64,000 nt of DNA from Patescibacteria group bacterium (GTDB taxonomy: Bacteria; Patescibacteriota; WWE3; UBA101185; UBA10185): assembly GCA_018825365.1 (NCBI GenBank), contig JAHJEV010000004.1, positions 27,527-91,526 on the forward strand, read 5' to 3'. Below, piece after piece: positions 44,182 through 60,638 of the stretch. The translations under genes were made by a program, and so were the position numbers. Each line of letters begins with the position of its first letter. The first letter of the stretch is position 1. The notes below the pieces were generated by a model that did not search any database, was not told the origin of the DNA, and worked only from the letters and a program-made list of their open reading frames with translations.

Positions 44182-47100
44182 ATGAGCCTGCCTGCCCAAG
44201 AAAACGCACAAAGAAATAATGACACAAAGTATGACTTCCAAAGATTTGGAAGTTTAAAAGTTTCTCAAGCCGCAAAAATTTTAGGTATATCCCCTTCCTC
44301 ACTTAGACGCTTCGAAAAAGAAGAAAGAATTACCTCGGAAAGAGCCCCCGGAAATAACTATAGAACCTACAGATTGGATCTAGTAAACAGGCTAAAAGCC
44401 GAGCTACAAAACGATGGTACCAACAAACAGCTTCTGGTCAAGAGGAAAAAACTTAGAAAAACTCAGAAATACTCCCCAGAAAAAATAAATACAGGTCTAA
44501 TAAAAACCAAACCAGGGATAATACCTTCCCCAGCCCCAGTATTTAACATGGATATACCTTCGGCGCCATACCATGTCAAACCTTATGTACCAGTATCCCC
44601 CTCGCTAGAAAAACTAGACGAATCGATTAAGACAAAGGGTGACAAAGAGGAAAACTTGAACTTACCGGAGGTAGTTCCTTCATATGAAAAAATAGTCACA
44701 TACAAACCAGCAGTAGCCAAATTAAGTTTAGGCAGAGTTTTCGCCTTGATATCTACTCTCGTACTAGTATCCACAATCCTTATTTTCCCCGTGAACTTTT
44801 CAAAAGTTCTTTCAGATTTTAGATCTAAAGTTCAAAACGGACTTGTCAACGCTAAGAATCTGTCAAATGTTCTTAGTACTTTAAACTTTGGATCAAAAAA
44901 GCTAGCTGAAAAGAAATCAACTGCCCCAAGTGAACTTTTGGCAAATGTACTTGCCGCAAGTGCCCGAGTTTCAAATTACGTTTACAACATCAATATTCCA
45001 GTATTTTTCAAAAAACCAGCAACATTTGAAGACACCCTAACGGCAGAGCAGCTGGCAACTTTCAACGCCGCTATTACCACAACCAATGTAACTTTCAAAG
45101 GCACCGGTTTAATAAATAACCTTTTAGGTATTGATGTAGTAACAAAAACCACACTCGAAAGAGACTTGGATATTGACGGACAGATAACAAGCACAGGAAT
45201 GGGAGACACGGTAATAAGCAAGGGAATTATAACAGGACCGATGCTCAATTCAAACATAACATATTCCGGTAAATTTAATTTTTCAGGAACAATTGCACTA
45301 AAAGGAACAACAATTACATCAACAGCAGCCGAGCTTAATCAACTGGCAGGACTTTCATATGAAAGCGGCGGCATATTTTACGGAGACGGGACCGGATTTT
45401 ATCAGGATACTTCTTATCTGTTTTGGGACAGCACAAACAAAAATCTAGGTATAGGAACTAGTTCTCCCACTGCAACTCTAGAAATAATAAGCTCGGGAAC
45501 AGGTACCTCTACGTCAACTTTATGGACTAAGAATTCTACTGGAACAACAGGTTTATTTGTACAAAATAGTGGGAATGTGGGTGTCGGAACTACAGCCCCG
45601 GCCACAGCTTTGGAAATCGGTGGAAGCGGAAATCTAAGAATAGGAGGATTAACTGCTTTATCCGGTGTATATACAGATGCTGACAAAACCCTGGTCTCTA
45701 CCCCACCTACTTCAGGAACTTTAGGCTATTGGCAAAGAAACGGAACTTATGTTTCTCCAGCGACAATCACTGACAATGTAGGTATTGGTACCACCGCTCC
45801 TTCAGCACTTCTTGAAGTAAACGGTACCTCATGGCTTCGAGGTGGAACAGCACCTACTTCAGGTTTGTTCGTAAATTCAAGTGGCAACGTCGGCATCGGA
45901 ACAACAAACCCGGGAGCTAAACTGGACGTACGGGGAGGATTGAATACTGGAACCAATGGAACAGAATTTACAGTTTCTGACACTGGTATAGTTACTGCAG
46001 CCACCTCATTTCTAGCTCCAACTTTTGATACTGCTACCGGAGTGGCTATGAATATCGGAACTGCCACTCAAACTGCCCTCACCCTTGGTAGGGCGGGAGC
46101 AACCACAACCATTAACGGTTCCGGCTTAACGGTTGGGCCAACCGCTTGGACCGCAACTCCAACTATCTCCGGACTGATTACCGCTACCTCCGGCTTAACT
46201 GCCAATGGAGCTTTAACCGCTAACAGCACTTTCACGCTTGGAGATGATGGAGACCTCGGATCGATTGATACTTCTGACTGGAATATCACAACAACTGGAG
46301 CAATGACCGGAATTTCAGGAATTGCTAATGATGGTGCCTACACTCAATCAGGAACATCGGCTAACACTTTTACTGGAACCTCAACTTTTTCCAATGCCAC
46401 CTACTCCGCCTTTTTTACCGGTGGTAACGTAGGTATCGGCACGACAGAGCCAGGCAGCAAGTTGGAAGTTGCGGGAACCTTTACCGTTTCCGGCAGCAAC
46501 CTAACCACTCTCGGAGGCAATCTGACAGTTACCGGTACTACTTGGACAGCCACCCCGACAATTTCCGGTTTAGTAACCATGACCTCAGGTTTTGACAGCA
46601 ACGCCGCCTCAACCGTCTCTTCCTTAACCATAGATGCCAACACTGGAAATGCTCTAACTATTTCCGGAACCGGTTTTACCACTGACATTACCCTCCAAAA
46701 CGGGGAAACAATTGACAATGACACTGACGGCACAATCTTACTCACCGCTCCCACCACTAAAACTTCAGGCAATCTGTATGCGGGAACATCAGGGACAGGA
46801 ACAATCACCTCAGGTTTAATTAACGGTCAAACTATATCCTCCGCCGCTAATTTCACCGGCACCGGAATTTTTGCTTCAACTCTAACTGCTTCCAATGGCT
46901 TAACTTTAACTACCGGAGCTTTGAATTTGACATCAACTTCCGGCACAGTTAACCTAGCAACGACTTTTAACCAAGTGGGCGCTACAACCATCAACACTTC
47001 AGGCACTGCCAACACTACTATCGGCAATACCGCAGGCGGGACAATCACAATCGGTGCCGCCTCCGGAAGCGATCTTGCCTTAAATGACGCCCAATGGTCA

Positions 47101-50100
47101 ATTACCGGGGCCGGAGCGGCCAACTTTACTGGTTTAACTTCATCAGGAACAATTACCTTTTCCGGCTTGACCGCTTCAAGAGGAGTATTTACCGCTACCG
47201 GAGGGCAATTAGCTACTTCGGCTACTTCCCAATACCTAATTGACTCTCTTTCCGACGAAACAGGGTCGGGAGCTTTGGTCTTTAGTAACAGCCCGGCAAT
47301 TACCACCCCGACCATCACCACTTCAGCTACCGTGCCTTTATTAATTGGTGGTACAGCTGCCAACAGCACTTTGACTTTGAGATCCACTTCGGGTACGGGC
47401 ATAACCGGAGCTGACATTCTTTTCCAGACCGGTAACAACGGGGCTACTGAAGCCATGAGAATTTTGAACTCGGGCAATGTGGGTATTGGGACGACCAATC
47501 CACAGTATGCTCTTGAAGTAGGAGGAAGCGGGAATGTGAGAATCGGAGGACTTAGTGCCTCAATGGGAGTATATACCGATGCAAATAAGCAGCTAACTTC
47601 CACTCCTCCTACCTCCGGGGGTTTAGGATACTGGACAAGAAGTGGTACTACTCTTTGGCCTACCGCAAATACGGATAATCTAACCACTCTTGGCAACATT
47701 GGCATAGGCACCACCTCCCCCACCTCTTCTCTTCATCTTAATGCGTCTGCCCCCAGTGGCATTATATTTAATCTTGCCTATGGTGCATCCACAGTAATTG
47801 ACAACGATCTTACCGGCGCCAAGTTTAACCTTGATGACGGCACAGTCGTTGCAACCAACCAGAATATCACAGGCTTGGAGGTAAAGTTGCCAACCGTCAC
47901 CAACACCCATACAACAGGCACCAAAACGCTCAAAGGATTTTATGTAAACTTCGGAACCGGATCAGGCTTAAACCAAACCGGCGTCGGCGGCACCACCACC
48001 TACAATGCCCTTCACGTGGATCTTCCCGCCCTTACCCAAACGGCCGGAACGTTAAACATTAATGGTTTGTATGTGAACTCTCCGTCCAGTATCACAACCG
48101 GCGGTACGGCAAGCGGTCTTTATATAAACTCCACAGGAGTTAATGCAGGCGCGCTGTACGGGGTGAATGTAAGTAATATAACGGCAGGCGCGGGAACCGA
48201 ACGGGCGATTAACATAGGGAGTGGCTGGGACAGCGTTTTAGCAGTAAACGGTACCGTGATAATAAGCGGCTCGGGAGTAACCCAAACAGCCGGCGGCGGC
48301 ACCGGTTTTTCCACGTATACCAAAGGAGATGTCCTATACTCGGACGCGGCCAACTCGCTTGCTAAACTTGGCATTGGCACTGTCAATCAAGTTCTCTCCG
48401 TTACCGCAGGAGGAGTGCCGGGTTGGGGAACTATGGACGGTACAAGCTGTGTCAACTGTCTTATTAGCAACCCCACCGGAGATCAAATCATTGCTCCTAC
48501 CGGACAGGGTACGACAGGACTAGTTGTTCGCCAGACCTCAACCTCCTCTCCTACCGATGATATTTTTGCTGTTACCAATAGCGCCGGTGATAATAAATAT
48601 TTTTATGTTGACTACGCGGGCGTTGTCAATATCCCAAGTATCGGCTCCTCCAGCGGAGACCAGCTAACTATTGAACCAGGAACAGACAAATACGCCCTTA
48701 AACTTCTGGGCACCAATGTGGCGGCAAACAGCCTTCAGCTTATTGACAGCTACAACACTTCGGGCACCATTTTTGATCTTGACTACCCAGCGGCAAGAAC
48801 GCTTTCAGGCGCACTTGTTGGTATGGATATTGACCTTTCCACCAATCTAACAGTAACAAACCAAAGCGTAACCGCTCAAAAAATTACTTTACCCACTTTT
48901 ACCAATACAAATACCACAGGTACCAAGTCGTATTTGGGTATGCAAATTGCTCCCCCGGGAGCTGGCGGTGTTAACCAAAATGGTATTGGTGGAACAAGCG
49001 AGTACATTTTGGCGGATCTTACCATGCCTGCTCTTACCCAAACAGCAGGAACGCTTAATGCCTACGGGGTCAAAATCATAACACCTTCGTCCATCACCAC
49101 CGGCGGTACTGCTTATGGGGTTAATATAAACGCAAGCGGAGTCGGAGCAGGCACGCTTTACGGGATGAATGTAAGTAATATAGCGGCAGGCGCGGGAACC
49201 GAACGGGCGATAAACATCGGCACAGGCTGGGATTATGGTATCTACTCGGAAACCACAGGCAACTCCTACTTTGCAGGCAGTGTTGGCATCGGAACAACAA
49301 ATCCCACCGCAGCTCTTGATGTTGCTGGAGGAATAAAAGCAACTACATTTAATGGCAATATTATCTCCACAGGTACTGGAACTTTAACACTGGGGGCTTC
49401 AAAAACTTTAACTGTTAATGATTCCACTGTTTTGAATACTAATACCGTTACCTTCGGAGGAACAGAAATATTAACTTTAACCGCAGGAAAGAATGTAACC
49501 TTTGCTGATTCCTTTACCACCTCGGGATCAAATTCTCTCACACTAACAACTACCGGGTCAACCAATACAACCCTGCCAACCACAGGAACTCTTGCTACCT
49601 TAGCCGGAATAGAAACATTCAGCAGCAAAACATTTAGCGGAAATACATACTTTCCTGGATCTGGTATCTGGGATGCAGGAGGCAACATCGGCATCGGGAC
49701 GACAGCTCCGAAGAACAAGCTAGATGTATTTGGTGCTATGGCTATAGGGTCATACGCAGGTGTGAATACGGCACCGAGCAACGGGATGATAATATCTGGC
49801 AACGTCGGCATCGGGACGACGGGACCGGGGGCGACCCTGCACGTTCAAAAAGGTGCTGGTGTAACGGCGGTATCAGACAGCAACGCAGTGTTTCAACTCA
49901 CATCTGATGGTAATGCATCAAATATGTGGTTTAACATTAAGACAGGAGCCAATGGTGGAACCAATGGGACATTTGGATTTGCTGAAGCTGGGACTATTAA
50001 GGGCGGAATATTATGGGACGTGGCAAACGCCTCATTTAATTTATCTAGTGACGTAAACACTACAGCGACTTCAAGGCAAGTGATTATTAAAGCAGGCAAC

Positions 50101-53100
50101 GTCGGCATCGGGACGACGGGTCCCGTGGCCAATTTACACATTGTTGGCTCAACCTTGTTTGGCTCCTTAGCCGTGGCCGACAAGGTCACTGGCGGAAACA
50201 TCGGTACCGCCGCTGCCACCGTTGATATATATACCAGCTTCAATCTGTCCCAGGCCACCGCGGGCCAAACCATTACCCTGCCCGATCCAACTAATACCAC
50301 GGCCGGCAGATTAGTCTATCTTTCCAATACCGGTTCGGCCACCTTTACTTTTTACAACTCCACGGTTAAAGTCGGCGATACCACCGCGGCCATTTGGGAC
50401 AGTGACTCCTGGAACCTGGCCGGCGGCGGCGGTTTGGCTCAAGGCACGGTTGATAATGCTACTTTAAGATGGAACAACTCAACCACTCAGTGGGTGGAAA
50501 ATACCAGTATTCTTACCGCGTTAAATCCAACAGCCGTAGGTTCTTATGGGTTGTCAGTTGGCAATTCTGGCGCTGTTGCCGGAACCGGATATGGCATTTA
50601 CACCACAAAGACCGGGGGCTCAACTACTAATGTAGCTTTGTATGCATCGGCATCCGGTGGCGCTGCAAATTATGCTGCCATTTTTGATTCAGGAAATGTC
50701 GGCATCGGGACAACTGCTCCCACATATAAACTGGATACCCAACTGGCAAGTAATGGAATAATTGCAAGATTTTCAGCAACAGATGCAAGTTTACTTATAG
50801 GAGCAGATGCTAGTGGTGGATATATACAACCAGGAACAGTAGATAAAACTACAATATATCAATCAAACGGCACATCAGCAGTAGTAACTGTAGACGCTAA
50901 CAAAGTAGGTATAGGAACGACTGCTCCATCAACAAAATTAGATGTGAATGGCACGATTACCAGCCAGACCGGAGCTGTAAACTCCAATGTGGCTGACTCT
51001 TCAACCGCCATCGCCTTTTTACTGGCATCCAATAATACTTTATCCACCCAGGGCGCCAAACTCCTTTCTTTGAAAAACGCCTCAACGGAAAAGTTTTACA
51101 TTGACAAAGACGGCAATCTCTATACGGCCGGCACCATTCTGGCCGGCAATGGCACCGGCATACTGATGATTAACAAATCCGGCGGCACGGTCGCTAAGCG
51201 CAGTTTAGTCGTCATTGACATCACCACCAACTCCGCCTTTGCCACTACCACCACCGCCTACGCCAAATCCAGTTTTGGCGTGATTACCGGCGTCGGGCTT
51301 GGAGTAGCCTATGACGCCGATGGCGACGGCGCGTGCGACGCCGAAGATGTCTGCATGGTGGCGGTTGGCGGCGAAGTGGAAGTTCTTCTGACCAACGCGT
51401 CTACCGCCGTTAAAGGCGACTATATTTATACCTCGGCCACGGCCGGTTCGGGCGTGTCCAGCGCCAAGCAGTTTGACGGCCTTATCGGCATCGTCAGCAA
51501 CACGGCCGGCTCTGCTTCCGGCTATGGCAAAATGATTTTTAAAGTCCAGCCCCAGGTCTCCGGCTCGCAGTTTTTAACTAAAGAAGACACAGCTTTGGCT
51601 AATGGCGGTTATGTGGAGATAGTCCACAATCAGAGCACTAATGATGTGGTGACCAATGGGTGGGTGTACAACACAACCACCAGTAAATGGGAAATAGTTG
51701 GTGATAGTGGGGATGCAATTGGTGGAACAGTAACATATAAAGATGGATATACCATCCATACATTTACCAGTAGCGGAACCTTCACGCCAGTTAGTGCTGG
51801 AAATGTTGAAGTTTATGCTTGGGGTGGTGGCGCAGGTGGTGGGTATAACGCCGGTGCCGGAGGTGGTGGAGGAGCAGCTAATGGTACAGTAACAGTTGCG
51901 GCATCTTCTTATGTTGTTACTGTTGGTGGCGGTGGATTATCTAGGGCACCGGATGCTGGTCCTGGACCAGCAGTTGTTGGTGGAGGTGGTTTAGCAGGTA
52001 ATCTTGGTTATGGTGGTCAAGGCGGAGGTTTATCTGGAATTTTTATAGGATCTTCTTCTCAAGTCAATGCTCGCTTAATGGCTGGTGGGGGCGGTGGTGG
52101 TGCTTACGAAGGTGCTAATGGCGGTGCTGGAGGCGGCACTAATGGCGTTGCTGGTGGCAACGGTTTAGATGCTGGTGGTGGTGGAGGAACACAATCTGCT
52201 GGTGGCACATCTGTTTCCTCTACCGGTTCTGCGCTACAGGGAGGTTCTTCTGGTGCTCAAGGTGATGGTGGCGGTAGCGGTGGTGGAGGTGGTGGTTATT
52301 GGGGTGGAGGAGCTGGTAGTAATACCAATCCTGGTTCTGCTGGTGGTGGCGGTGCAGGATTTTATAACCCAACTTATGCTTCCTCTGTAACATTAACTGC
52401 AGGTTCTGGAACAACACCTGGTGATTCAGGTAATTCTTTAAGAGGTTCTGCTGGTAATGGAGGTGCGGCTGGTAATAATGCAGGTACAGCCGGCATTGTC
52501 ATTGTTAGATATCTGACGAATTCGTTGAGCGCTTTCAAAATCACCCAGCAGGATACCAATACGGTTCGGCTTTATAATTATTCCGGCGCGACGCAATATG
52601 TCAGGTTAAATGTTATTCCTTCCGGCGGCGGCGGTTCGCCGGGCGGCGGCGCCGGGCTCTACACCAATAACAACGCCTCCGTTGCCAACGGCTCCTACAT
52701 CGACGTGGCGCACAACCAGAACACCGCCGACCTGGTAAGCAACGGGTGGATTTACAATACAGCTACTAGCAAATGGGAACAGATTGACAAAGATAGTAGT
52801 GATGCCACTGGCGGAACAATAACATATAGCGGTGGATATACCATTCATACTTTTACAAGTAGCGGAACATTCACACCACCAAATAATGGAAATGTTGAAT
52901 ATCTTGTGGTTGGAGGAGGAGGAGGAGGTCATACGGGAGGTGGTGGGGCGGGTGGATATTTGACTGGAACAGATTCATTATCCGCAACCTCTTACAATGT
53001 TATAGTTGGAGCAACAGTGGGCGCATATACAACTGGAAACAATAGTTCATTCAATGGCAAAATAGCTTCTGGCGGAGGTCTTGGAGGAAATGTAGGTGAA

Positions 53101-56076
53101 GCAGGGGGAGATGGAGGTTCGGGTGGTGGTGCGGGTGCGGGTGGTGGTGTGTATGCACATGGTCACGCAACTGGTACTCCGAGTAGCCAAGGTCATGATG
53201 GGGGCATAAACTATAATAGCTCTCCTTATCCTGCTGGTGGTGGCGGTGGCGCAGATACAGTAGGTTCAGATGGAACGTCTAATGGAGGTGGAAATGGGGG
53301 CGCAGGACTAACATCAAGTATTAGTGGAAGTTCAGTAGGTTATGCAGGTGGGGGTGGGGGTTATAGTCAAGATACAAAACCTCCAGGAACTGCGTCCCAT
53401 GGAGGAGGAGCAGGAGTAGGGCAAACGGGCACTCCCAATGCTGGCACACCTAATACTGGCGGAGGCGGCGGCGGCGGACAGAATGGTGGTGCAGGTGGTT
53501 CCGGCATTGTCATTGTCAGATATTTAACCAATTCTTTAAGTGCTTTCAAAATCACCCAGCTCGATACCAACACGGTACGGCTCTACAACTACTCCGGTAC
53601 TACTCAAAACTTACGGCTTGATGTCATTACCGGAGGATTGGGCCGAAACGCCGGCACCGTGTCTTTGGCGCCGGCTGCCGCCGACGTTGACAGCCAGGAT
53701 AACTCCAACAGCATCTGGATCAACAAAACCGGAGCCGGGGGCTTGCTGCTCAAGCTCCAATCTGCGGCTGCGGATGTTCTCACTTTGGCCAAGAGCGGCC
53801 TGATGACCTTGGCCGGCAGTTTCGTTCCCGCTACCAACGATACCTATGATTTGGGTTCGGACGCCTTGAGATGGCAGTCTGCCTACATCGGGCCCGGGAC
53901 AGTGCACATTGGCACCTCCACCGCTGATGAGTACACTATGTCATATGACACAACTAACAACCGCTTGGGTTTCAATGTCAACGGTTCGGGCGATGCGGAA
54001 ATCGTCTTTGATTCCTCCGGCAACGTCGGCATCGGGACGACGGGACCAGAATCTAAACTACATGTTATGTTTAATAGCGCAGGTACAATCACAGGTTTTT
54101 CCGACGCATTAATTGTTGAAAACAACGCGAATGCTTATTTGAACCTCATTGGTTCAACTTCTGGAATAAAGGCGATTACTTTTGGAGACCCAACTGCCGG
54201 TGTGGTAGATGGTCAAATCACCTACAATGCCCTCGCTACTGACATGCTTGACTTTCGTGTTGCTGGTAATTCTGTAAAGATGGTGATTGACTCTTCCGGC
54301 AACGTCGGCATCGGGACGACGACGCCTGCAGCTAGAACACACATAGTCAATACTACAGCTACCGCACTAAGGTTGGATGTAAATGATGCATTTTCTTATG
54401 CGGAGTTTTATACTGGTGCAACATATCGTGGAAATATAACATATCAGGCGGCAAGTACTGCTTTGCGATTGACTGCTGGAACAGCACAGAACTTACTCTT
54501 AACTGCTGCGGATAGTAATGATAAAGGGATATTTATAAAAACAGACGGCAATGTCGGCATCGGTACAACAGCTCCGAAGAACAAGCTAGATGTATTTGGT
54601 GCTATGGCTATAGGGTCATACGCAGGTGTGAATACGGCACCGAGCAACGGGATGATAATATCTGGCAACGTCGGCATCGGGACGACGGGGCCGGGGGGCA
54701 AGTTAAGCATTTATGATACGTCAGCCGGTGCTAACGATAGGGTACAGATAGTCAGCGATCTAAGTTCGAGCGTGGACCAGTTGGTACTCCATCATTATGG
54801 GACGGCAGGAACTCAGCTTGCGTCATTTTGGAGAGGCAGGGGCACTTTCTCTTCACCAACAGCTTTATCGAATGGTGATGCAATCGGTCAATTTAATTTC
54901 GTAGGATATGACACAAGTAACACGGCTCAGACAGGGGCAGGATTCGGGGCAGTAGTAGATGCGGCTCCAGGAGCTGGAAGCGTTCCTATTGCAATAAGAT
55001 TTTTAACAGGTACCACAGGAGGTGGGACGGAACGGGTCAGAATTGATAGTACCGGCAACGTCGGCATCGGGACGACGGGGCCAGTGAGCTCGCTAGAAAT
55101 AAAAGGTCCGAACACTGTAAATACTCCGCGCTTAACGCTCAACCAACTTTATAACGCAGGAGCGTCGGCGTGGGGTATTGATTTCACTCGCACCTACGAC
55201 ACCGGTGGTGACGGACAAAACGCGGGGTACATTCGTATTGGCCGTGCCGGGGGAACCTCAAATTCGGGTATGTTTTTTGGGCTTGGTGACCAAGGTACAG
55301 TCGCAGATAGAATGACTATTCTTCCAAGCGGCAACGTCGGCATCGGGACGACAGGTCCAGGGTATACATTAACAGTTGCAGGTACTGCCTGGGTTACAAG
55401 CGGCGCCTGGTCTGGTTCGGATGTTAGATGGAAAGAAAATATTCAGCCTATAGCAGGAGCCTTGGACAAAGTACTGCAACTCTCCGGAGTTTTCTATAAC
55501 TGGAGAAAAGACGAGTTTCCAGAAAATAAATTTGATGACAAAACTCACTTGGGGTTAATTGCTCAGGATGTAGAAAAAATTGTTCCCGAACTGGTAACCA
55601 CAGGACCAGACGGCTATAAAGGTCTTGATTATAATGGATTAGCGCCTCTTTTAATTGGGGCCGTACAGGAACAGCAGGGGCAAATCTCGCTGCTGTCAGG
55701 ACAGCTGGTAAGCTTATCAAATATCGTCCGTGTTGAAGGCTCGTGCGTTACCGGTGACACATTGCTTCCCATCCGCCGCCGACGCAAAAGTCTAAGTGGT
55801 CTGGAATCCGAGGACGACAATGGGTTATTTGATTACCTGTTGATCCGTATCGATGAAATACTACCTGGCGATGAAGTCTCGTCCTTAAATGAGTTTACAG
55901 GCTCTCTAGAATGGCATAAAATAAATGCCTCGATGGATATGGATATTAAGGAAGTTTTTGAGCTTACAACCAAATCAGGAAAAGTAATCAGGACAACAGC
56001 CAAGCATCCTTACTTAACTTTGTTGGAAGATAAATTGGAAGGTAACCCTGTAGTTAGTAAAGAAGGAATAAAATAA
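44182..56076 (+). CDS. giant (3964 aa) cell-surface protein: N-terminal HTH, single TM, tail-fibre-like 'GNVGIGTTxP' repeat array, tandem Gly-rich modules, peptidase-S74 intramolecular chaperone domain, C-terminal split-intein N-fragment
   Basis: Single uninterrupted ORF. HTH 'LKVSQAAKILGISPSSLRRFEKEERI' (aa 22-50). TM 'RVFALISTLVLVSTILIFPV' (aa ~184-204). Many 'SGNVGIGTT(A/N/G)P..KL(D/E)V' repeats. S74 motif 'SDVRWKENIQPIAGALDKVLQLSGVFYNWRKDE...LIAQDVEKIVPELV'. Final 110 aa 'CVTGDTLL...VIRTTAKHPYLT...' are intein blocks A and B. Confidence 0.85.
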   Translation: MSLPAQENAQRNNDTKYDFQRFGSLKVSQAAKILGISPSSLRRFEKEERITSERAPGNNYRTYRLDLVNRLKAELQNDGTNKQLLVKRKKLRKTQKYSPEKINTGLIKTKPGIIPSPAPVFNMDIPSAPYHVKPYVPVSPSLEKLDESIKTKGDKEENLNLPEVVPSYEKIVTYKPAVAKLSLGRVFALISTLVLVSTILIFPVNFSKVLSDFRSKVQNGLVNAKNLSNVLSTLNFGSKKLAEKKSTAPSELLANVLAASARVSNYVYNINIPVFFKKPATFEDTLTAEQLATFNAAITTTNVTFKGTGLINNLLGIDVVTKTTLERDLDIDGQITSTGMGDTVISKGIITGPMLNSNITYSGKFNFSGTIALKGTTITSTAAELNQLAGLSYESGGIFYGDGTGFYQDTSYLFWDSTNKNLGIGTSSPTATLEIISSGTGTSTSTLWTKNSTGTTGLFVQNSGNVGVGTTAPATALEIGGSGNLRIGGLTALSGVYTDADKTLVSTPPTSGTLGYWQRNGTYVSPATITDNVGIGTTAPSALLEVNGTSWLRGGTAPTSGLFVNSSGNVGIGTTNPGAKLDVRGGLNTGTNGTEFTVSDTGIVTAATSFLAPTFDTATGVAMNIGTATQTALTLGRAGATTTINGSGLTVGPTAWTATPTISGLITATSGLTANGALTANSTFTLGDDGDLGSIDTSDWNITTTGAMTGISGIANDGAYTQSGTSANTFTGTSTFSNATYSAFFTGGNVGIGTTEPGSKLEVAGTFTVSGSNLTTLGGNLTVTGTTWTATPTISGLVTMTSGFDSNAASTVSSLTIDANTGNALTISGTGFTTDITLQNGETIDNDTDGTILLTAPTTKTSGNLYAGTSGTGTITSGLINGQTISSAANFTGTGIFASTLTASNGLTLTTGALNLTSTSGTVNLATTFNQVGATTINTSGTANTTIGNTAGGTITIGAASGSDLALNDAQWSITGAGAANFTGLTSSGTITFSGLTASRGVFTATGGQLATSATSQYLIDSLSDETGSGALVFSNSPAITTPTITTSATVPLLIGGTAANSTLTLRSTSGTGITGADILFQTGNNGATEAMRILNSGNVGIGTTNPQYALEVGGSGNVRIGGLSASMGVYTDANKQLTSTPPTSGGLGYWTRSGTTLWPTANTDNLTTLGNIGIGTTSPTSSLHLNASAPSGIIFNLAYGASTVIDNDLTGAKFNLDDGTVVATNQNITGLEVKLPTVTNTHTTGTKTLKGFYVNFGTGSGLNQTGVGGTTTYNALHVDLPALTQTAGTLNINGLYVNSPSSITTGGTASGLYINSTGVNAGALYGVNVSNITAGAGTERAINIGSGWDSVLAVNGTVIISGSGVTQTAGGGTGFSTYTKGDVLYSDAANSLAKLGIGTVNQVLSVTAGGVPGWGTMDGTSCVNCLISNPTGDQIIAPTGQGTTGLVVRQTSTSSPTDDIFAVTNSAGDNKYFYVDYAGVVNIPSIGSSSGDQLTIEPGTDKYALKLLGTNVAANSLQLIDSYNTSGTIFDLDYPAARTLSGALVGMDIDLSTNLTVTNQSVTAQKITLPTFTNTNTTGTKSYLGMQIAPPGAGGVNQNGIGGTSEYILADLTMPALTQTAGTLNAYGVKIITPSSITTGGTAYGVNINASGVGAGTLYGMNVSNIAAGAGTERAINIGTGWDYGIYSETTGNSYFAGSVGIGTTNPTAALDVAGGIKATTFNGNIISTGTGTLTLGASKTLTVNDSTVLNTNTVTFGGTEILTLTAGKNVTFADSFTTSGSNSLTLTTTGSTNTTLPTTGTLATLAGIETFSSKTFSGNTYFPGSGIWDAGGNIGIGTTAPKNKLDVFGAMAIGSYAGVNTAPSNGMIISGNVGIGTTGPGATLHVQKGAGVTAVSDSNAVFQLTSDGNASNMWFNIKTGANGGTNGTFGFAEAGTIKGGILWDVANASFNLSSDVNTTATSRQVIIKAGNVGIGTTGPVANLHIVGSTLFGSLAVADKVTGGNIGTAAATVDIYTSFNLSQATAGQTITLPDPTNTTAGRLVYLSNTGSATFTFYNSTVKVGDTTAAIWDSDSWNLAGGGGLAQGTVDNATLRWNNSTTQWVENTSILTALNPTAVGSYGLSVGNSGAVAGTGYGIYTTKTGGSTTNVALYASASGGAANYAAIFDSGNVGIGTTAPTYKLDTQLASNGIIARFSATDASLLIGADASGGYIQPGTVDKTTIYQSNGTSAVVTVDANKVGIGTTAPSTKLDVNGTITSQTGAVNSNVADSSTAIAFLLASNNTLSTQGAKLLSLKNASTEKFYIDKDGNLYTAGTILAGNGTGILMINKSGGTVAKRSLVVIDITTNSAFATTTTAYAKSSFGVITGVGLGVAYDADGDGACDAEDVCMVAVGGEVEVLLTNASTAVKGDYIYTSATAGSGVSSAKQFDGLIGIVSNTAGSASGYGKMIFKVQPQVSGSQFLTKEDTALANGGYVEIVHNQSTNDVVTNGWVYNTTTSKWEIVGDSGDAIGGTVTYKDGYTIHTFTSSGTFTPVSAGNVEVYAWGGGAGGGYNAGAGGGGGAANGTVTVAASSYVVTVGGGGLSRAPDAGPGPAVVGGGGLAGNLGYGGQGGGLSGIFIGSSSQVNARLMAGGGGGGAYEGANGGAGGGTNGVAGGNGLDAGGGGGTQSAGGTSVSSTGSALQGGSSGAQGDGGGSGGGGGGYWGGGAGSNTNPGSAGGGGAGFYNPTYASSVTLTAGSGTTPGDSGNSLRGSAGNGGAAGNNAGTAGIVIVRYLTNSLSAFKITQQDTNTVRLYNYSGATQYVRLNVIPSGGGGSPGGGAGLYTNNNASVANGSYIDVAHNQNTADLVSNGWIYNTATSKWEQIDKDSSDATGGTITYSGGYTIHTFTSSGTFTPPNNGNVEYLVVGGGGGGHTGGGGAGGYLTGTDSLSATSYNVIVGATVGAYTTGNNSSFNGKIASGGGLGGNVGEAGGDGGSGGGAGAGGGVYAHGHATGTPSSQGHDGGINYNSSPYPAGGGGGADTVGSDGTSNGGGNGGAGLTSSISGSSVGYAGGGGGYSQDTKPPGTASHGGGAGVGQTGTPNAGTPNTGGGGGGGQNGGAGGSGIVIVRYLTNSLSAFKITQLDTNTVRLYNYSGTTQNLRLDVITGGLGRNAGTVSLAPAAADVDSQDNSNSIWINKTGAGGLLLKLQSAAADVLTLAKSGLMTLAGSFVPATNDTYDLGSDALRWQSAYIGPGTVHIGTSTADEYTMSYDTTNNRLGFNVNGSGDAEIVFDSSGNVGIGTTGPESKLHVMFNSAGTITGFSDALIVENNANAYLNLIGSTSGIKAITFGDPTAGVVDGQITYNALATDMLDFRVAGNSVKMVIDSSGNVGIGTTTPAARTHIVNTTATALRLDVNDAFSYAEFYTGATYRGNITYQAASTALRLTAGTAQNLLLTAADSNDKGIFIKTDGNVGIGTTAPKNKLDVFGAMAIGSYAGVNTAPSNGMIISGNVGIGTTGPGGKLSIYDTSAGANDRVQIVSDLSSSVDQLVLHHYGTAGTQLASFWRGRGTFSSPTALSNGDAIGQFNFVGYDTSNTAQTGAGFGAVVDAAPGAGSVPIAIRFLTGTTGGGTERVRIDSTGNVGIGTTGPVSSLEIKGPNTVNTPRLTLNQLYNAGASAWGIDFTRTYDTGGDGQNAGYIRIGRAGGTSNSGMFFGLGDQGTVADRMTILPSGNVGIGTTGPGYTLTVAGTAWVTSGAWSGSDVRWKENIQPIAGALDKVLQLSGVFYNWRKDEFPENKFDDKTHLGLIAQDVEKIVPELVTTGPDGYKGLDYNGLAPLLIGAVQEQQGQISLLSGQLVSLSNIVRVEGSCVTGDTLLPIRRRRKSLSGLESEDDNGLFDYLLIRIDEILPGDEVSSLNEFTGSLEWHKINASMDMDIKEVFELTTKSGKVIRTTAKHPYLTLLEDKLEGNPVVSKEGIK
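49705..49824 (+). repeat. ~120-nt perfect intragenic direct repeat, copy 1 (copy 2 at 54571-54690)
   Basis: Identical stretch 'gctccgaagaacaagctagatgtatttggtgctatggctatagggtcatacgcaggtgtgaatacggcaccgagcaacgggatgataatatctggcaacgtcggcatcgggacgacggg' at both sites. Confidence 0.8.
54571..54690 (+). repeat. ~120-nt perfect intragenic direct repeat, copy 2
   Basis: See copy 1; 4.87 kb apart in the same reading frame, encoding 'APKNKLDVFGAMAIGSYAGVNTAPSNGMIISGNVGIGTTGPG'. Confidence 0.8.
55417..55743 (+). other. peptidase S74 / intramolecular chaperone auto-processing domain (sub-feature of the giant CDS)
   Basis: 'SDVRWKENI...FYNWRKDEFPENKFDDKTHLGLIAQDVEKIVPELV' matches the tail-spike/endosialidase C-terminal chaperone domain (SDxRxK Ser-Lys dyad region). 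Confidence 0.7.
55744..56073 (+). other. split-intein N-terminal fragment (Int-N; Hint blocks A and B), DnaE-split-intein-like
   Basis: Block A 'CVTGDTLL' at the extein/intein junction (…VEGS|C); block B 'GKVIRTTAKHPYLT', close to the cyanobacterial DnaE Int-N block B 'GSVIRATSDHRFLT' as recalled; ORF stops 20 aa later, as in natural Int-N. Confidence 0.75.
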
Positions 56077-56201: not shown

Positions 56202-56780
56202 ATGAAAATTAACCAAAATATGAAAAAATTCCAAAAAACTCTGGAATTAAAAGGCAAAACGGCTGTCCTCATTGATTGGGCTAACGTTCACGGATGGGCA
56301 GAATTGGGTCACTCTGAAGTTAATCTAAAAAAGTTGTTTAAATACTTAAGAGGGTACAAAAAGATTAAAGCAATAAATCTATATTTCGGTAAGGATACTC
56401 ATCCAAAATCAAAAAAGTTTTTAGGTGAAGCGAAGAAAATAGGTTTTAAGGTAATCACAAAACCAGTTAAATATATCAAGGTGGCTGTATTCCAAAATAA
56501 ACCAATTTTCCGACGAAAGTGCGACTTTGATATGGAAATTTGTATTGATATTCACAAACATTTAAGCCAAAATTATGATAGTTTCATTTTCTTTTCTGGC
56601 GATGGGGACTTTGAGCCTCTTTATAGACTATTAATCGAAAGACATAAACAGGTTATTGTAATATATGGACAAGGCCATCTGGGAAGGGAGATTTACTCAA
56701 TAAAACAGGGGTTATATAAACTCGATATTAATAAGTTGGGGTCAGTAAAAAATGACCCCCCGGTTTCCCGGAGGGCGTGA
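56202..56780 (+). CDS. NYN-domain (LabA/YacP-like) protein
   Basis: 'KTAVLIDWANVHG' N-terminal acidic motif and 'FFSGDGDFEPL' NYN signature; 192 aa. Confidence 0.7.
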   Translation: MKINQNMKKFQKTLELKGKTAVLIDWANVHGWAELGHSEVNLKKLFKYLRGYKKIKAINLYFGKDTHPKSKKFLGEAKKIGFKVITKPVKYIKVAVFQNKPIFRRKCDFDMEICIDIHKHLSQNYDSFIFFSGDGDFEPLYRLLIERHKQVIVIYGQGHLGREIYSIKQGLYKLDINKLGSVKNDPPVSRRA

Positions 56781-56906
56781 TTAAAAGTATGTTAACAAAA
56801 CTAGCCAGAAAAGTCAAATTAGGAAAGATCGGCAAAGACCGCTTAACTCAGGAATTTATACCTGGCGATCAGCGATTCGAGCCGATTAGTAGGTAAAGGA
56901 TAACGT

Positions 56907-58232
56907 ATGTCTAAATTTTTATCAAATATTTTTAATTTAATGAAGGCCCATAAACCTGGGGTCCCCGACCTCGCTAAATCGCCTATAGGTGGTGATGTAC
57001 CAACTACACCGAACAAGCAAGACGGACATCTCACCTCCGCTCAGGGCAAGCCCATAATGGACTCTTTTGCCTGCCCTTACTGCGCAAGCAAACACTTTGT
57101 CAGAAGAGGTTTTAGACAGAAAAAAATGGAAAAAGTCCAGCTTTATCTTTGCCTGGAGTGCAACAAAACCTTTACCCAGCATATAACCCGCGGCAAACAC
57201 TATCCTTTACCGGTTGTTTTCGATGCTATCAGCACTTATAATCTTGGGTATTCTCTGGAAGAAACCTGCAGGATAATTAATAGCCGCACCGCCGGCGTTA
57301 CGTCAGCAGTTTCCGAGGCAGGTCCCGCACTTTCGGCATCGACTTTATCAAATTGGCTTAATGAAACATCAGAGCTCTGCCGATTTGAGCGCATGCGCGA
57401 ATATGCCCTGAAAAAATACTCGCCAGAAAATATGGTTGTTACCGCAACTCTCGCCCACCGACAGCTTTACCGCTACCGCTTCCATAGAGCCAAATGCGAA
57501 CTTATCATCACTGAAGATTTTAAACACCACCGCTTCGGGCCTTTGCAGGAATTTCTAGAAATGGTGCCCAGTGAGTGTCCGCACCAATATTTCCAAGAAG
57601 GCTTAAGGGCCAGTGAAGTGCCTTTGACCTTTTCCAAAACCCAAATGATCGTCAGAAGCAAGCAAAACTACGCCACTGCGCTTGCCACCTTTATCCTGCA
57701 GTCGGTCAAGGATAGAAAACTGCGCCATGACGCTATACAAAAATTTATGCTGGCCAACGACACGGTAACTGTCGCCACTGAAGTACCGGTTTACTTAACC
57801 CACGATGATTTGGAGCATTTGCAGACACAGCTAGGGTTTGAAATATATGACTCCCCCATTAAAGGAGCCCGTTCGGCCGCCTTGGAAGTGTGTACCGACC
57901 TGCCAAAATTAATCACTGGCCACATTGACATACTGCAAATAAGAAACGGCCAGATTCATATTTTGGATTTTAAACCTGACGCCGCAAAAGAACAGCCGAT
58001 TGAACAGCTGACTTTGTATGCTATGGCGCTGTCCAGACTTACCGGTTTAAGATTATTCGAGTTTAAATGCGCTTGGTTTGATGAAAAAGACTATTTTGAA
58101 TTTTATCCATTACATGTTTTACTTAAAACAAAGAAAAGTCAGAGACGCCGAAAAGTCTATACCATGGAAGGAGTTTATAAAATTAATCAGGATGAAAGAA
58201 AGGTAACAGAAATTAAACCTATACACCTATGA
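56907..58232 (+). CDS. Zn-ribbon + PD-(D/E)xK nuclease-fold protein (candidate free-standing homing endonuclease)
   Basis: N-terminal 'CPYCASKH...CLECNKTF' C4 ribbon; C-terminal 'ITGHIDILQIRNGQIHILDFKPD' (D...D/ExK-like core); locally higher GC than the genome. Confidence 0.55.
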   Translation: MSKFLSNIFNLMKAHKPGVPDLAKSPIGGDVPTTPNKQDGHLTSAQGKPIMDSFACPYCASKHFVRRGFRQKKMEKVQLYLCLECNKTFTQHITRGKHYPLPVVFDAISTYNLGYSLEETCRIINSRTAGVTSAVSEAGPALSASTLSNWLNETSELCRFERMREYALKKYSPENMVVTATLAHRQLYRYRFHRAKCELIITEDFKHHRFGPLQEFLEMVPSECPHQYFQEGLRASEVPLTFSKTQMIVRSKQNYATALATFILQSVKDRKLRHDAIQKFMLANDTVTVATEVPVYLTHDDLEHLQTQLGFEIYDSPIKGARSAALEVCTDLPKLITGHIDILQIRNGQIHILDFKPDAAKEQPIEQLTLYAMALSRLTGLRLFEFKCAWFDEKDYFEFYPLHVLLKTKKSQRRRKVYTMEGVYKINQDERKVTEIKPIHL

Positions 58233-58645
58233 CCTATCAAAAATCATACAGCCCTAAAAGACCGGTGAAAAGCTTCCAGGATTTGGAAGTGTACCAAAAG
58301 TTATTGGCTCTCTCAGTTGCTGTAGCCAAAAGAGTCAAATCCGAAAAAGTGACTGCCATTGCCTTAGATTTGCCGGTTAAGATAGCCACAGCTCACTCAT
58401 CGAGATTTGGTGATCAGACAAAGGCAATTTACGCTCTGGATGAAGTAATGCTTAATTGCAATCTGCTTGTTGTTTATTTGGAACAATACCGGGATATTGA
58501 AAATCCGTCTGCTAAAGAGGCAGAGAAGATTGAATCTGAATTTTTTGAGGAGCAGATTAAAAGTCTTTTGTCAGTCAGAATGAAAATTTTACATTTACAA
58601 AATTCGTGGAAGAAATTCGCCAAAGAATATGCCAAACAAAAATAA
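58229..58645 (+). CDS. four-helix-bundle protein (23S rRNA intervening-sequence protein family, TIGR02436-like)
   Basis: 'FQDLEVYQKLLALSVAVAKRV...' matches the four-helix-bundle/IVS protein N-terminus (FxDLxVWQKA); 138 aa; 4-nt overlap with upstream gene. Confidence 0.7.
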   Translation: MTYQKSYSPKRPVKSFQDLEVYQKLLALSVAVAKRVKSEKVTAIALDLPVKIATAHSSRFGDQTKAIYALDEVMLNCNLLVVYLEQYRDIENPSAKEAEKIESEFFEEQIKSLLSVRMKILHLQNSWKKFAKEYAKQK

Positions 58646-58883
58646 CAAGAAAAATTTAATAGACACCCACCCTGTAGGCAGGATCTTTAATATTGGCAAG
58701 GAAAAGGCCGTCTGGAAAAGAGTAACCGAGCTAAAACCCGGGGTAAAAATTGCTGTCGAAAAAGATGGAAACCTCGCTTGGGATGAAATTGTTGAAATAA
58801 AATCCGTCGGCCTCGAAAGAGTCTGGGACATTGAAGTTGAAGGCACGCATAACTTTGTCGGCAACGGTATCATCGCCCACAAT
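58629..58883 (+). other. Int-C portion (blocks F/G) of the split intein
   Basis: 'VWDIEVEGTHNFVGNGIIAHN' similar to the DnaE Int-C '[22 protein letters not shown]' as recalled; splice junction at 58883/58884. Confidence 0.75.
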
Positions 58884-60638
58884 ACTTTTCTCAACGATCT
58901 TGTTGGGATAGGAACTACAAATCCAGCAGATACAACCTTAAACTTATCAAGTACAAGCCCGTCTAGTATAAATATGCTGGATGTTGACGGAGTAATAAGA
59001 ATCAACCAATCAGTAGTCACCGACACAGTTTCAAACACCTTATACAACAACTCGGATGTATTAATGTGGAATGATAAACAAATATCAGCCGGACCTAACC
59101 TGTACTCGATAAACGGATCCGTTTCCAACGATGAGTATTTATCGCTACAACACAAACAGGGTACAACTGACATACTGGTCACAGCATGGGTAAACGACGG
59201 AACAAAATGGGTAAAGATTGCAAATCTAGGAGACCCGTCAGATACAACCGGGGATTACTACTTCACTACACCGGACAGCGATACGGTCCGTTTACACAAT
59301 AAATCCGGAAACTCACAGTCATTAAAACTAGACATATTCGTATCCGGAGCTAATGTTGCAGAGTGGTACACACTCGATAACACATTTGCTGACACTAGCA
59401 CAGCTTCAGATGTTTCAGATATCTCAGACACTTCGGATACTTCAGATGTTATAACTACCGGTACATCCCCAAGCACTGAAATTACCCTACCAGGTTCATC
59501 ACCTGATACCTCAATCACCGAGTCTACGTCCGTACCTAATACTGAAATTACTAAAATTGAATCCGGTGATGTTGTTGCACTATCTACAAATATTGACGAT
59601 TACGGAATGCCGATGATTAGAAAAACAAGCACCTATTACGACTCGAGTTTATTTGGAGTAGTTACTACAAGTGCCAGCCACGAAATGGGAATACAAAGAG
59701 ATGGAAGAAAACTTGTTGCCCTGTCAGGTAGAGTCCCTGTAAAGATAGATCCCGCTTCTTCAGATATTAAACCCGGAGACTTCATTACAGCATCATCTCT
59801 TGAGGGACATGCAACCAAAGCTGAAATGCCGGGAAGAGTCATTGGTACAGCGCTGCAGTCGTGGAATAAAAATTCCGGTGACAAAAAGGTACTGGTTTTA
59901 GTCAATCCAACATACAACTCACCTACCGCCCAAGCACTCACATCAGCTTTATCATCTGACAGCTCTACATCTGGAGATATTTCAAATGAAATGCTAACTC
60001 TAAGAGATCAGATAGTTGCCCTATCTAACAATCTTAAGGACACACTATCTTCCCTTGGGATGACATTAACTAAGGATGAGGTTTCAGAAAAAGACACGCT
60101 GGCTATTAACTCAGACATGCACATACTTGGGGATGTGACACTTACTAACCTGACCGTAACTGGCGATATTCAGGCAGGAATGGTCACAATTGACACACTT
60201 TCTAACTCAGTAGACGTGCTTGGATCTTCCTGCTATAACTCAGAAACTAATACAATCAATGACACATTATGTAATGATCAGGCTTTACATCTTCAAAAAT
60301 CTGGCTCCGGTATGATTGACATGTTCGACGGAAAGATAGTTGCCAAACCAAACGGAACATTGGTTATAGAAAACTCCATAGAAACCAAGAAACTTGTCAT
60401 CAACACATCTGATGTAGAATCCGCAGCTGCAGGAAAAACAACCATCAAAGCCGGTGACACCAGTATCACAATAGATACGAGCGCTGTAAATGACAAATCC
60501 ATAATCATGATAACTCCGGAAAGACCGGCTACTGTCGGAAGCAAATACAAGCAGGAAGGAAAGTTTGAAATAGTCTTGAAGGAGGCTCAGGCGGAGGATC
60601 TTGATATAAGCTGGATAATTGTGGATAGAAAAGATTAA
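58629..60638 (+). CDS. split-intein C-terminal fragment (Int-C, 85 aa) fused to the C-terminal extein of the tail-fibre-like surface protein (669 aa total)
   Basis: 'RVWDIEVEGTHNFVGNGIIAHN|TFLNDLVGIGTTNP...' carries intein blocks F and G ending in HN with +1 Thr; extein resumes the GIGTT repeat type of the upstream giant protein; S/T/D-rich linker; C-terminal globular region. Confidence 0.8.
   Translation: MPNKNNKKNLIDTHPVGRIFNIGKEKAVWKRVTELKPGVKIAVEKDGNLAWDEIVEIKSVGLERVWDIEVEGTHNFVGNGIIAHNTFLNDLVGIGTTNPADTTLNLSSTSPSSINMLDVDGVIRINQSVVTDTVSNTLYNNSDVLMWNDKQISAGPNLYSINGSVSNDEYLSLQHKQGTTDILVTAWVNDGTKWVKIANLGDPSDTTGDYYFTTPDSDTVRLHNKSGNSQSLKLDIFVSGANVAEWYTLDNTFADTSTASDVSDISDTSDTSDVITTGTSPSTEITLPGSSPDTSITESTSVPNTEITKIESGDVVALSTNIDDYGMPMIRKTSTYYDSSLFGVVTTSASHEMGIQRDGRKLVALSGRVPVKIDPASSDIKPGDFITASSLEGHATKAEMPGRVIGTALQSWNKNSGDKKVLVLVNPTYNSPTAQALTSALSSDSSTSGDISNEMLTLRDQIVALSNNLKDTLSSLGMTLTKDEVSEKDTLAINSDMHILGDVTLTNLTVTGDIQAGMVTIDTLSNSVDVLGSSCYNSETNTINDTLCNDQALHLQKSGSGMIDMFDGKIVAKPNGTLVIENSIETKKLVINTSDVESAAAGKTTIKAGDTSITIDTSAVNDKSIIMITPERPATVGSKYKQEGKFEIVLKEAQAEDLDISWIIVDRKD
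60486..60638 (+). repeat. 3'-terminal ~150 nt of the Int-C/extein gene (master copy of a thrice-repeated segment)
   Basis: Sequence 'taaatgacaaatccataatcatgataactccggaaagaccggctactgtcggaagcaaatacaagcaggaaggaaagtttgaaata...ctggataattgtggatagaaaagattaa' recurs at 62003-62152 and partly at 63579-63600. Confidence 0.8.

Follow-up and report, generated by a model that had tools for sequence, protein, structure and literature searches.

What is a self-cleaving chaperone domain, of the kind that closes phage tail fibres, doing inside a bacterial fibre protein and directly in front of half an intein? This question is raised by a 64,000-nucleotide stretch of DNA (hereafter, the window) from a Patescibacteria group bacterium of the WWE3 lineage (assembly GCA_018825365.1, contig JAHJEV010000004.1, positions 27,527 to 91,526 of the forward strand). 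There, a giant open reading frame (ORF) for a fibre-like protein carries a Peptidase_S74 domain followed immediately by the N-terminal half of a split intein (Int-N), while the C-terminal half (Int-C) opens a downstream ORF together with the remainder of the protein (the C-extein). A first-pass annotation of the sequence had raised the possibility of a two-step pathway of splicing and then cleavage. Our analysis points to two independent layers behind this seeming two-step maturation device, namely a host fibre with an internal S74 node and a selfish split intein lodged behind it. We hold this account as a whole with moderate confidence, and the same joint grade covers its description of the host protein as an N-terminally membrane-anchored trimeric fibre of the Patescibacteria cell, with a spliced native form of 4438 amino acids (aa).

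The S74 domain was matched by Pfam Peptidase_S74 (PF13884) at aa 3746–3806 of the giant protein, over profile positions 1–58 of 58, with an E-value of 7.9e-17 and 61.7 bits against a cutoff of 22. Its first residue is encoded at nucleotide (nt) 55417, where the sequence reads SDVRWKENI, and the domain closes with ...SNIVRVEGS (S3854, nt 55741–55743). In phmmer comparisons with the PDB, aa 3746–3851 aligned with the C-terminal chaperone in the long tail fibre from phage S16 (6f45, residues 92–200 of the 204 in the chain), and the domain together with its upstream GNVGIGTT stalk aligned with MyRF's intramolecular chaperone autocleavage (ICA) domain (7dc3). The AlphaFold2 (AF2) monomer model of aa 3707–3854 had a mean predicted local distance difference test (pLDDT) score of 87.9, with at least 92 in each 10-residue block of S74, and contained a helix at model residues 111–147. 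The MyRF ICA domain was also the top PDB match of this model in Foldseek (E 1.5e-6, TM-score 0.66–0.71); the C-terminal intramolecular chaperone domain (CIMCD) of endoNF (3gw6) and the intramolecular chaperone (IMC) of GA-1 (3gud) were found as well, all three with a probability of 0.98–1.00. As modelled, the domain would belong to the MyRF-like type without long tentacles.

In the phmmer alignments, S3746 and K3751 line up with the catalytic positions of both 7dc3 and 6f45. Additionally, R3749 matches R590 of MyRF, while Y3772 (55495–55497) and W3774 (55501–55503) match Y615 and Y617. The S587/K592 dyad of MyRF corresponds to S911/K916 in endoNF and S1264/K1269 in T5 pb1 (PMC8326128, PMC4690869), and the roles of S587/K592 and of Y615/Y617 have been described for MyRF (PMC8326128). 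The Ser, Asp and Lys of the catalytic motif were invariant in a 69-sequence S74 alignment. Across all S74 domains collected here, S-x4-K was kept in 60 of the 61 internal and 130 of the 131 terminal copies, a retention that suggests purifying selection on the dyad; a relative with Glu at the Ser position of its internal S74 (P0003) was also identified. Because the Ser, Lys, Arg and aromatic residues are all kept, the S74 domain of the window is intact and not degenerate. An alignment of the Ser/Lys pair had been named in the first-pass annotation as the way to recognise a non-cleaving copy, and here it found both residues in place (S3746, K3751).

The intein directly behind S74 starts at C3855 (CVTGDTLLP...TTAKHPY), and its first half is coding to 56073 and ends with a stop codon at 56074–56076. 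Int-C forms the first 85 aa of the ORF at 58629..60638, ends in ...GIIAHN|T and matched PF14890 with 39.5 bits (cutoff 35.8) at profile positions 112–155 of 155. When joined, Int-N and Int-C aligned as one complete HINT domain with the DnaB ('Replicative DNA helicase') intein 4o1r (E 1.2e-16) at chain residues 29–81 and 84–142, the break falling directly after block B. The window contains one Int-N and one Int-C only. The splicing residues are all present (C1, TxxH, the terminal HN and a Thr at +1), and all five ORFs are open.

The relationship between the two exteins became clear from a homologue without any intein (P0237, 1966 aa), which was identified by an exhaustive phmmer search with S74 plus Int-N as the query. 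P0237 and the in-silico spliced window protein share 513 identities over 825 positions (62%) in a single alignment that crosses the splice junction without a break, and the two exteins are therefore halves of one protein. At this junction the window reads ...SLSNIVRVEGS[intein]TFLNDLVGIGTTNPADT... and P0237 reads ...SLSSAVQI-------DLVGIGTTNPADI..., with ...AVQIDLVGIGTT... as its empty site and EGSTFLN as the sole extra residues of the window. Flanks similar to the extra EGS/TFLN of the window are found with the intein at other places too: ...HVEG[SQ] stands before related Int-N sequences, and TY[IL]... comes after Int-C in two related loci (L001 and L002). In P0237, S74 is located about 560 aa from the end of an uninterrupted gene. 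The internal position of S74 is therefore a property of the host protein and was not made by the intein, and the idea that the position is tied to the intein had to be given up, the more so as about 40 of the closest 150 relatives in the exhaustive search carry 60–600 aa after S74 without an adjacent intein.

The first-pass annotation was right that S74 lies upstream of Int-N and is followed by further extein, which comprises 584 aa (585 in its count). From the S74 start onwards, the spliced protein comprises 109 + 584 = 693 aa, and this would be the size of the fragment if the domain is cleaved, close to the roughly 700 aa that had been estimated. Its premise that S74 forms the extreme C-terminus holds as a phage rule, since PHROG tail-fibre profiles match S74 at their extreme C-terminal ends and 130 of the about 190 S74 domains collected are terminal, but it is not universal, as MYRF and the oenophage X27 Tal protein demonstrate. 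In the homologues found by word-index search, S74 nearly always closed the protein, with −18 to +32 aa beyond it. Several of the closest 150 relatives carry two S74 domains. Taken by itself, the internal position is a lineage-wide architecture with precedents.

Two other relatives (P0069, P0099) have Peptidase_S74 annotated together with PF18962, a C-terminal sorting domain of the type IX secretion system; they contain about 87–93 aa after S74 and may represent another kind of non-terminal S74. Furthermore, a metagenomic protein of 275 aa (P0018) was found with a radical-SAM N-terminus joined to the C-terminal half of S74. BLASTP gave its S74 half an identity of 69% to the window and phmmer one of 80%, and the protein is probably a chimeric assembly or a gene-call artefact.

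The nature of the segment behind the junction was less direct to read. No significant match to the C-extein was obtained in Pfam, NCBIfam or PHROGs, and no Peptidase_G2 match appeared even at E<=1. A module profile built from C-extein homologues matched the autochaperone of phi29 gp12 with an E-value of about 0.006 (3gqh, 6qz9) and also a tailspike chaperone domain. The 'xADLAE[YW]' start of this module aligned with S691|D692-FAEYFE of gp12, exactly at the maturation site; mature gp12* ends at residue 691 (PMC6542822). A relative of 644 aa (P0272) scored 27.6 bits for Peptidase_G2 (cutoff 25), and behind its canonical internal domain (GADYAEYF) come a coiled coil, then a fibre repeat and then a split Int-N from the same intein family, an order that is the G2 counterpart of the S74-to-Int-N layout of the window. 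The G2-like family includes more than 1000 proteins, whose top members have a C-terminal 138-aa domain starting with GG[AS]DLAEPF.

Within this family, the Asp equivalent to D692 of gp12 is invariant in 111 of 111 related C-terminal modules and is replaced by Asn in the window and in P0237 (SGANVAEWY), while the WWE3 C-extein of L001 has the canonical AADYAEYF. The 60-aa Ser/Thr insert is likewise common to the window and P0237. As the intein-free P0237 shares the Asn, the substitution is a stable lineage feature, and the G2-like module has probably lost its own cleavage. AF2 was confident for the C-extein only at aa 221–345, whose Foldseek neighbours were phage capsid decoration proteins, and at aa 505–584, whose neighbours were H-type lectins and the C-termini of tail fibres and tailspikes (E >1e-3). 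A weak H_lectin match was also observed in a relative (P0005). The C-terminal domain is tentatively regarded, from its model, as H-lectin-like or as a tail-fibre tip. The first-pass annotation had suggested a processed, possibly secreted C-terminal product. With a second chaperone-like module and this tentative lectin-like tip, the C-extein has the appearance of a working outer part of the fibre and does not look like waste.

These elements can be combined into a proposed mechanism. Both intein halves would be translated, and Int-N and Int-C would associate and splice in trans through C3855, TxxH, the terminal HN and the +1 Thr, giving ...VRVEGS-TFLNDLVGIGTT... with a junction peptide that would read ...VRVEGSTFLNDLVGIGTTNPADT... 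and restoring the protein of 4438 aa. The S74 coiled coil would then trimerise, and the Ser3746/Lys3751 dyad would cut between G3745 and S3746. Such a cut would separate the anchored shaft of 3745 aa from a distal piece of 693 aa, comprising S74, the small beta-domain, the G2-like module, the coiled coil and the lectin-like tip. S74 would act as an in-line chaperone and an autocleavage node 693 aa from the true C-terminus. For cleavage that actually ends in release of the distal piece, we see the chances as roughly equal either way.

Several observations weigh against this account. The N-extein should be exported, but no signal or transmembrane (TM)/hydrophobic segment was detected in the Int-C/C-extein ORF, and none after S74 in the giant protein; splicing would therefore have to take place in the cytoplasm, ahead of the export of the C-terminal end. 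The place of the split, right after block B, is unusual for an intein whose trans-splicing is a prediction from the sequence. The conservation of Ser and Lys could partly reflect structure. In addition, the G2 and lectin assignments come from weak scores (E about 0.006 and Foldseek E >1e-3, respectively). Finally, a lectin-like tip would be expected above all to remain on the fibre, from which cleavage with release would sever it.

This last point leads to the alternative that survives best, although we consider it rather unlikely: internal S74 may be a trimerisation or folding node that is left uncleaved, or is cleaved with the parts staying bound, so that the fibre remains one assembly. A tip-like C-terminal domain and a coiled coil downstream of S74 would suit such a node, as would the many relatives with two S74 domains in series or with 200–600 aa after S74. 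The authors of the X27 Tal study raise a non-cleaving internal copy (PMC12403621), and together with the relatives that have S74 in series this makes it conceivable that internal copies escape cleavage. In P0003, Glu in place of the Ser indicates that non-cleaving internal copies exist, and the neighbouring G2-like module, without its Asp in the window and in P0237, suggests that internal chaperone modules can lose cleavage. The residues themselves speak for a cutting domain, however. The window retains Ser, Asp, Arg, Lys and both aromatic residues, internal S74 domains keep S-x4-K at the same rate as terminal ones, and the closest structure is a MyRF-type ICA domain, which in MYRF cleaves with a long region downstream (PMC3742443, PMC8326128). 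We accordingly continue to prefer the reading in which internal S74 is a cleaving node of the host fibre.

The intein has a history of its own, which is visible in the cassette between its halves. This cassette spans 56202–58645 in the window, and equivalent cassettes were found at 960–2788 in L001 (candidate division WWE3, GCA_002789015.1) and at 1115–3330 in L002. Both loci show the order S74-Int-N, an optional PemK, an ORF of 433–477 aa, an ORF of 132–152 aa and Int-C-extein. The cargo is variable, with NYN in the window, the PemK toxin in its place in L002 and none in L001. The 441-aa ORF of the window reached 22.6 bits for PD-(D/E)XK (cutoff 22) and carries an IS1-type Zn ribbon, which makes it a candidate homing nuclease; it falls outside the Vsr-like family known from fractured genes. 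No family match was obtained for the 138-aa ORF. In a third locus (L003, the contig of P0009) the upstream reading frame is broken, and nothing could be learned from it.

Between the window and L001, identity is 63% for Int-N, 68% for Int-C, 67% for the 441-aa ORF and 66% for the 138-aa ORF, against 47% for S74 and 29% for the C-extein. The intein and its cassette are much more conserved than the host gene, as expected of a horizontally spreading element and not of a device that co-evolved with S74. Furthermore, the same intein family was identified behind plain GNVGIGTT..LHVEG repeats without a nearby S74 (P0011–P0016) and up to five times, in contiguous form, in one protein of 5631 aa (P0224). 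The intein with its two-gene cassette is best described, as far as these comparisons go, as a selfish mobile unit and not as an S74-linked maturation device, and the locus as a putative fractured gene in which the intein inserted directly behind S74, where the next fibre repeat starts. For a designed splice-then-cleave pathway we see no evidence: intein and cassette outconserve the exteins, the family occupies many sites without S74, and the order of events would be imposed by a parasitic element. No report of inteins in fibre proteins of the candidate phyla radiation (CPR)/Patescibacteria, or beside S74 or other intramolecular chaperones, was found in the literature searched, which omits most subscription papers.

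Beyond these loci, multiple contiguous inteins, or pieces that start with Int-C and end with Int-N as in multiply fractured genes, were observed in P0224, P0227, P0231, P0232, P0015 and P0263.

A coupled maturation, in which the intein was placed behind S74 so that splicing gates or orders cleavage or loads cargo onto the S74 fragment, is improbable in the light of this history. It could draw on about 18 further clusters (at 50% identity) with S74 followed by an intein, all of which except P0277 end in a split Int-N and which show two conserved junction types, ...HVEG[SQ]|CVTGDT[LM]LPI and ...GVLSVGPDVNAQ|CV[VT]GDT[RK]LRR; in P0272, a split Int-N also stands behind a chaperone module, there of the G2 type. 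However, the choice of S74 plus Int-N as the query enriched the search for S74-intein matches. P0237 has the same extein architecture without an intein, the same family occurs at many sites without S74, and the exteins are far less conserved than the intein with its cassette. Moreover, the cassette encodes a candidate nuclease, a hallmark of homing elements (PMC2677866), and the window holds just one Int-C partner. Least probable of all is a dead intein or truncated gene, with a near-terminal S74 that discards a 219-aa S74-Int-N stub and a downstream ORF that is independent or decaying: the unusual split place, the long Int-C of 85 aa and the broken upstream frame of the related contig L003 might suggest it, but C1, TxxH, HN and the +1 Thr are intact, all five ORFs are open, the intein halves are 63–68% identical to a distant WWE3 locus, and the C-extein is 62% identical to the contiguous P0237 in one continuous alignment with S74. 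A scheme of 'alternative tips', with several Int-C genes per Int-N, was also considered and rejected for the window, which holds one of each.

If the preferred account of an internal, cleaving S74 node and a selfish intein is carried further, a wider picture can be drawn, to which we give only a small chance. Giant Patescibacteria fibres might be chains of segments joined by self-cleaving S74/G2-like nodes. S74 cleavage after trans-splicing might then shed or hand over a lectin-tipped trimer of the 693-aa piece, for example as a released host-binding factor of an epibiont. Fibre-specialised inteins (contiguous, split or multiply split, and with a nuclease cassette) might break the genes at repeats and so allow recombination or exchange of distal segments.

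The features of the locus are collected in Table 1. Its C-extein ORF is 100% identical to a protein from a metagenome-assembled genome of a 'Patescibacteria group bacterium'. In the N-extein, 19 G[IVLM]G[TI][TS] fibre motifs were counted. The second of its two glycine-rich modules matched Pfam Gly_rich_2 (59.8 bits), while the first had no Pfam match and was located by its sequence motif. The two copies of the small beta-domain in the N-extein each seemingly hold a glycine-rich insert, and the copy in the C-extein is uninterrupted. This shared domain marks the C-extein as part of the fibre. The MerR-type helix-turn-helix (HTH) of the giant protein is predicted to be cytoplasmic and precedes the single TM-like segment. 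A MYRF-like release of this N-terminal HTH was rejected on topology, as the HTH and the single TM segment lie far upstream of S74 and no TM segment follows it. An HTH-like N-terminal start was also observed in the relatives P0229, P0270, P0286 and P0323, with a TM-like segment in the first three and not in P0323. Other relatives (P0005–P0008, P0226, P0274) share an N-terminal 'YQGKL..G....Y...F.LY' region. In P0005 this region scored 55.8 bits, below the cutoff of 60, against the NCBIfam N-domain of the Bdellovibrio mosaic-adhesive-trimer fibre, which hints that these CPR fibres may be analogous to the adhesion fibres of predators. Two paralogous AAA_14 + DUF4143 ATPase genes follow directly downstream of the fibre locus, on the minus strand (60737–61930 and 62210–63472).

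Table 1. Features of the giant fibre locus and its split intein (positions in the window)
Feature	Position	Strand	Description
Giant fibre ORF	44182..56076	+	3964 aa
N-extein of giant fibre protein	44182..55743	+	aa 1–3854
MerR-type HTH in N-extein	44257–44397	+	aa 26–72
Single TM-like segment in N-extein	44722–44802	+	aa 181–207
Two glycine-rich modules in N-extein	about 51745–52518, 52855–53523	+	second by Pfam, first by sequence motif
Predicted S74 scissile site G3745/S3746 and catalytic motif S3746-D-V-R3749-W-K3751	55414..55434	+	alignment to 7dc3 and 6f45
Peptidase_S74/intramolecular chaperone autocleavage domain	55417..55743	+	aa 3746–3854; 109 aa including C-terminal coiled-coil helix
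Int-N half and stop codon TAA	55744..56076	+	aa 3855–3964; Cys1, block B TTAKH
NYN-domain ORF	56202..56780	+	192 aa; variable cargo
Zn-ribbon and candidate nuclease ORF	56907..58232	+	441 aa; IS1-like Zn ribbon, RecB/Cas4-like PD-(D/E)XK
138-aa ORF	58229..58645	+	conserved cassette gene; overlaps start of Int-C ORF
Int-C half	58629..58883	+	85 aa; blocks F and G, ...VWDIEVEGTHNFVGNGIIAHN, then +1 Thr
C-extein	58884..60638	+	584 aa and stop; opens with fibre repeat TFLNDLVGIGTTNP
Small beta-domain in C-extein	59112–59348	+	C-extein aa 77–155; also twice in N-extein
Peptidase_G2-like module	59343..59918	+	motif, Ser/Thr insert, beta core
G2-like cleavage-site motif SGA-N-VAEWY	59343–59369	+	C-extein aa 154–162; Asn for Asp
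Ser/Thr-rich insert in G2-like module	59379–59555	+	60 aa
Beta core of G2-like module	59556–59918	+	pLDDT 88–97
Predicted long helices, likely coiled coil	59922..60053	+	C-extein aa 347–390
C-terminal beta domain	60396..60635	+	C-extein aa 505–584; pLDDT about 90

Compared with known systems, the S74 domain of the window is a bona fide member of the S74/ICA group in all but the 'terminal and discarded' feature. With the phage CIMCDs (endoNF 3gw6, T5 pb1, S16 6f45 and GA-1 3gud) it shares PF13884, the SDxRxK motif, the preceding fibre repeats and a coiled-coil end. Those domains form the extreme C-terminus and are discarded, whereas in the window 693 aa (spliced) or 219 aa (unspliced) lie between the cleavage site and the end. 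MYRF, with its MyRF ICA domain (7dc3), is closer in being an internal case with hundreds of residues after the domain, SDxRxK, the dyad plus two aromatic residues, and no long beta-hairpin tentacles. However, the ICA domain of MYRF stands beside a DNA-binding domain, which cleavage frees from a downstream TM anchor, while in the window the HTH and the sole TM segment are about 3500 aa upstream, and what cleavage would set free is the distal part of a fibre, not a transcription factor. By analogy, the S74 domain would work most like a MyRF-type ICA domain, yet with this different topology the giant protein is not a MYRF-like tethered factor.

The Tal protein of oenophage X27/Vinitor 162 (PMC12403621) likewise carries a MyRF-like IMC in an internal position, with its Ser-Lys dyad intact and more fibre behind it, and its authors face the same question about cleavage. 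It differs in being a phage tail protein with two consecutive beta-prism-IMC motifs and no intein, whose downstream part is closed by a second S74 and not by a G2-like module with a lectin-like tip. MYRF and Tal, the few known cases, are now joined by a large group of cellular (CPR) proteins whose internal S74 domain is seemingly catalytically intact, and the natural pair of intein-bearing and intein-free alleles makes it testable whether internal IMC domains cleave. As for the second chaperone module, the likeness to the Peptidase_G2 domain of phi29 gp12 (PF11962; 3gqh, 6qz9) lies in the module start that aligns at the maturation site. Unlike gp12, the copy in the window is below the Pfam threshold, has Asn for Asp and a 60-aa Ser/Thr insert, is internal, and has a beta core that resembles phage capsid decoration proteins.

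Inteins are classically found in replication and repair enzymes. The more unusual biology of this locus is the fibre-dwelling family of split and contiguous inteins, which is placed in repeat motifs of extracellular fibres, with up to five per protein and often in fractured-gene form with a conserved cassette that includes the candidate nuclease, and which is of interest as a source of new split inteins. As in the fractured genes described by Dassa et al. in 2009 (PMC2677866), the upstream ORF closes with Int-N, the downstream ORF of that strand opens with Int-C, and the halves are separated by a nuclease gene (a putative one in the window) that arrived together with gene-control or cargo elements. 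The proteins interrupted in those cases are enzymes of DNA synthesis and repair, for the most part from phages; in the window it is a repetitive structural surface fibre, encoded by a cellular CPR genome. The cassette differs as well, with a putative Zn-ribbon plus RecB/Cas4-like PD-(D/E)XK nuclease in place of a Vsr-like one and with two conserved genes plus variable cargo, and the split falls right after block B.

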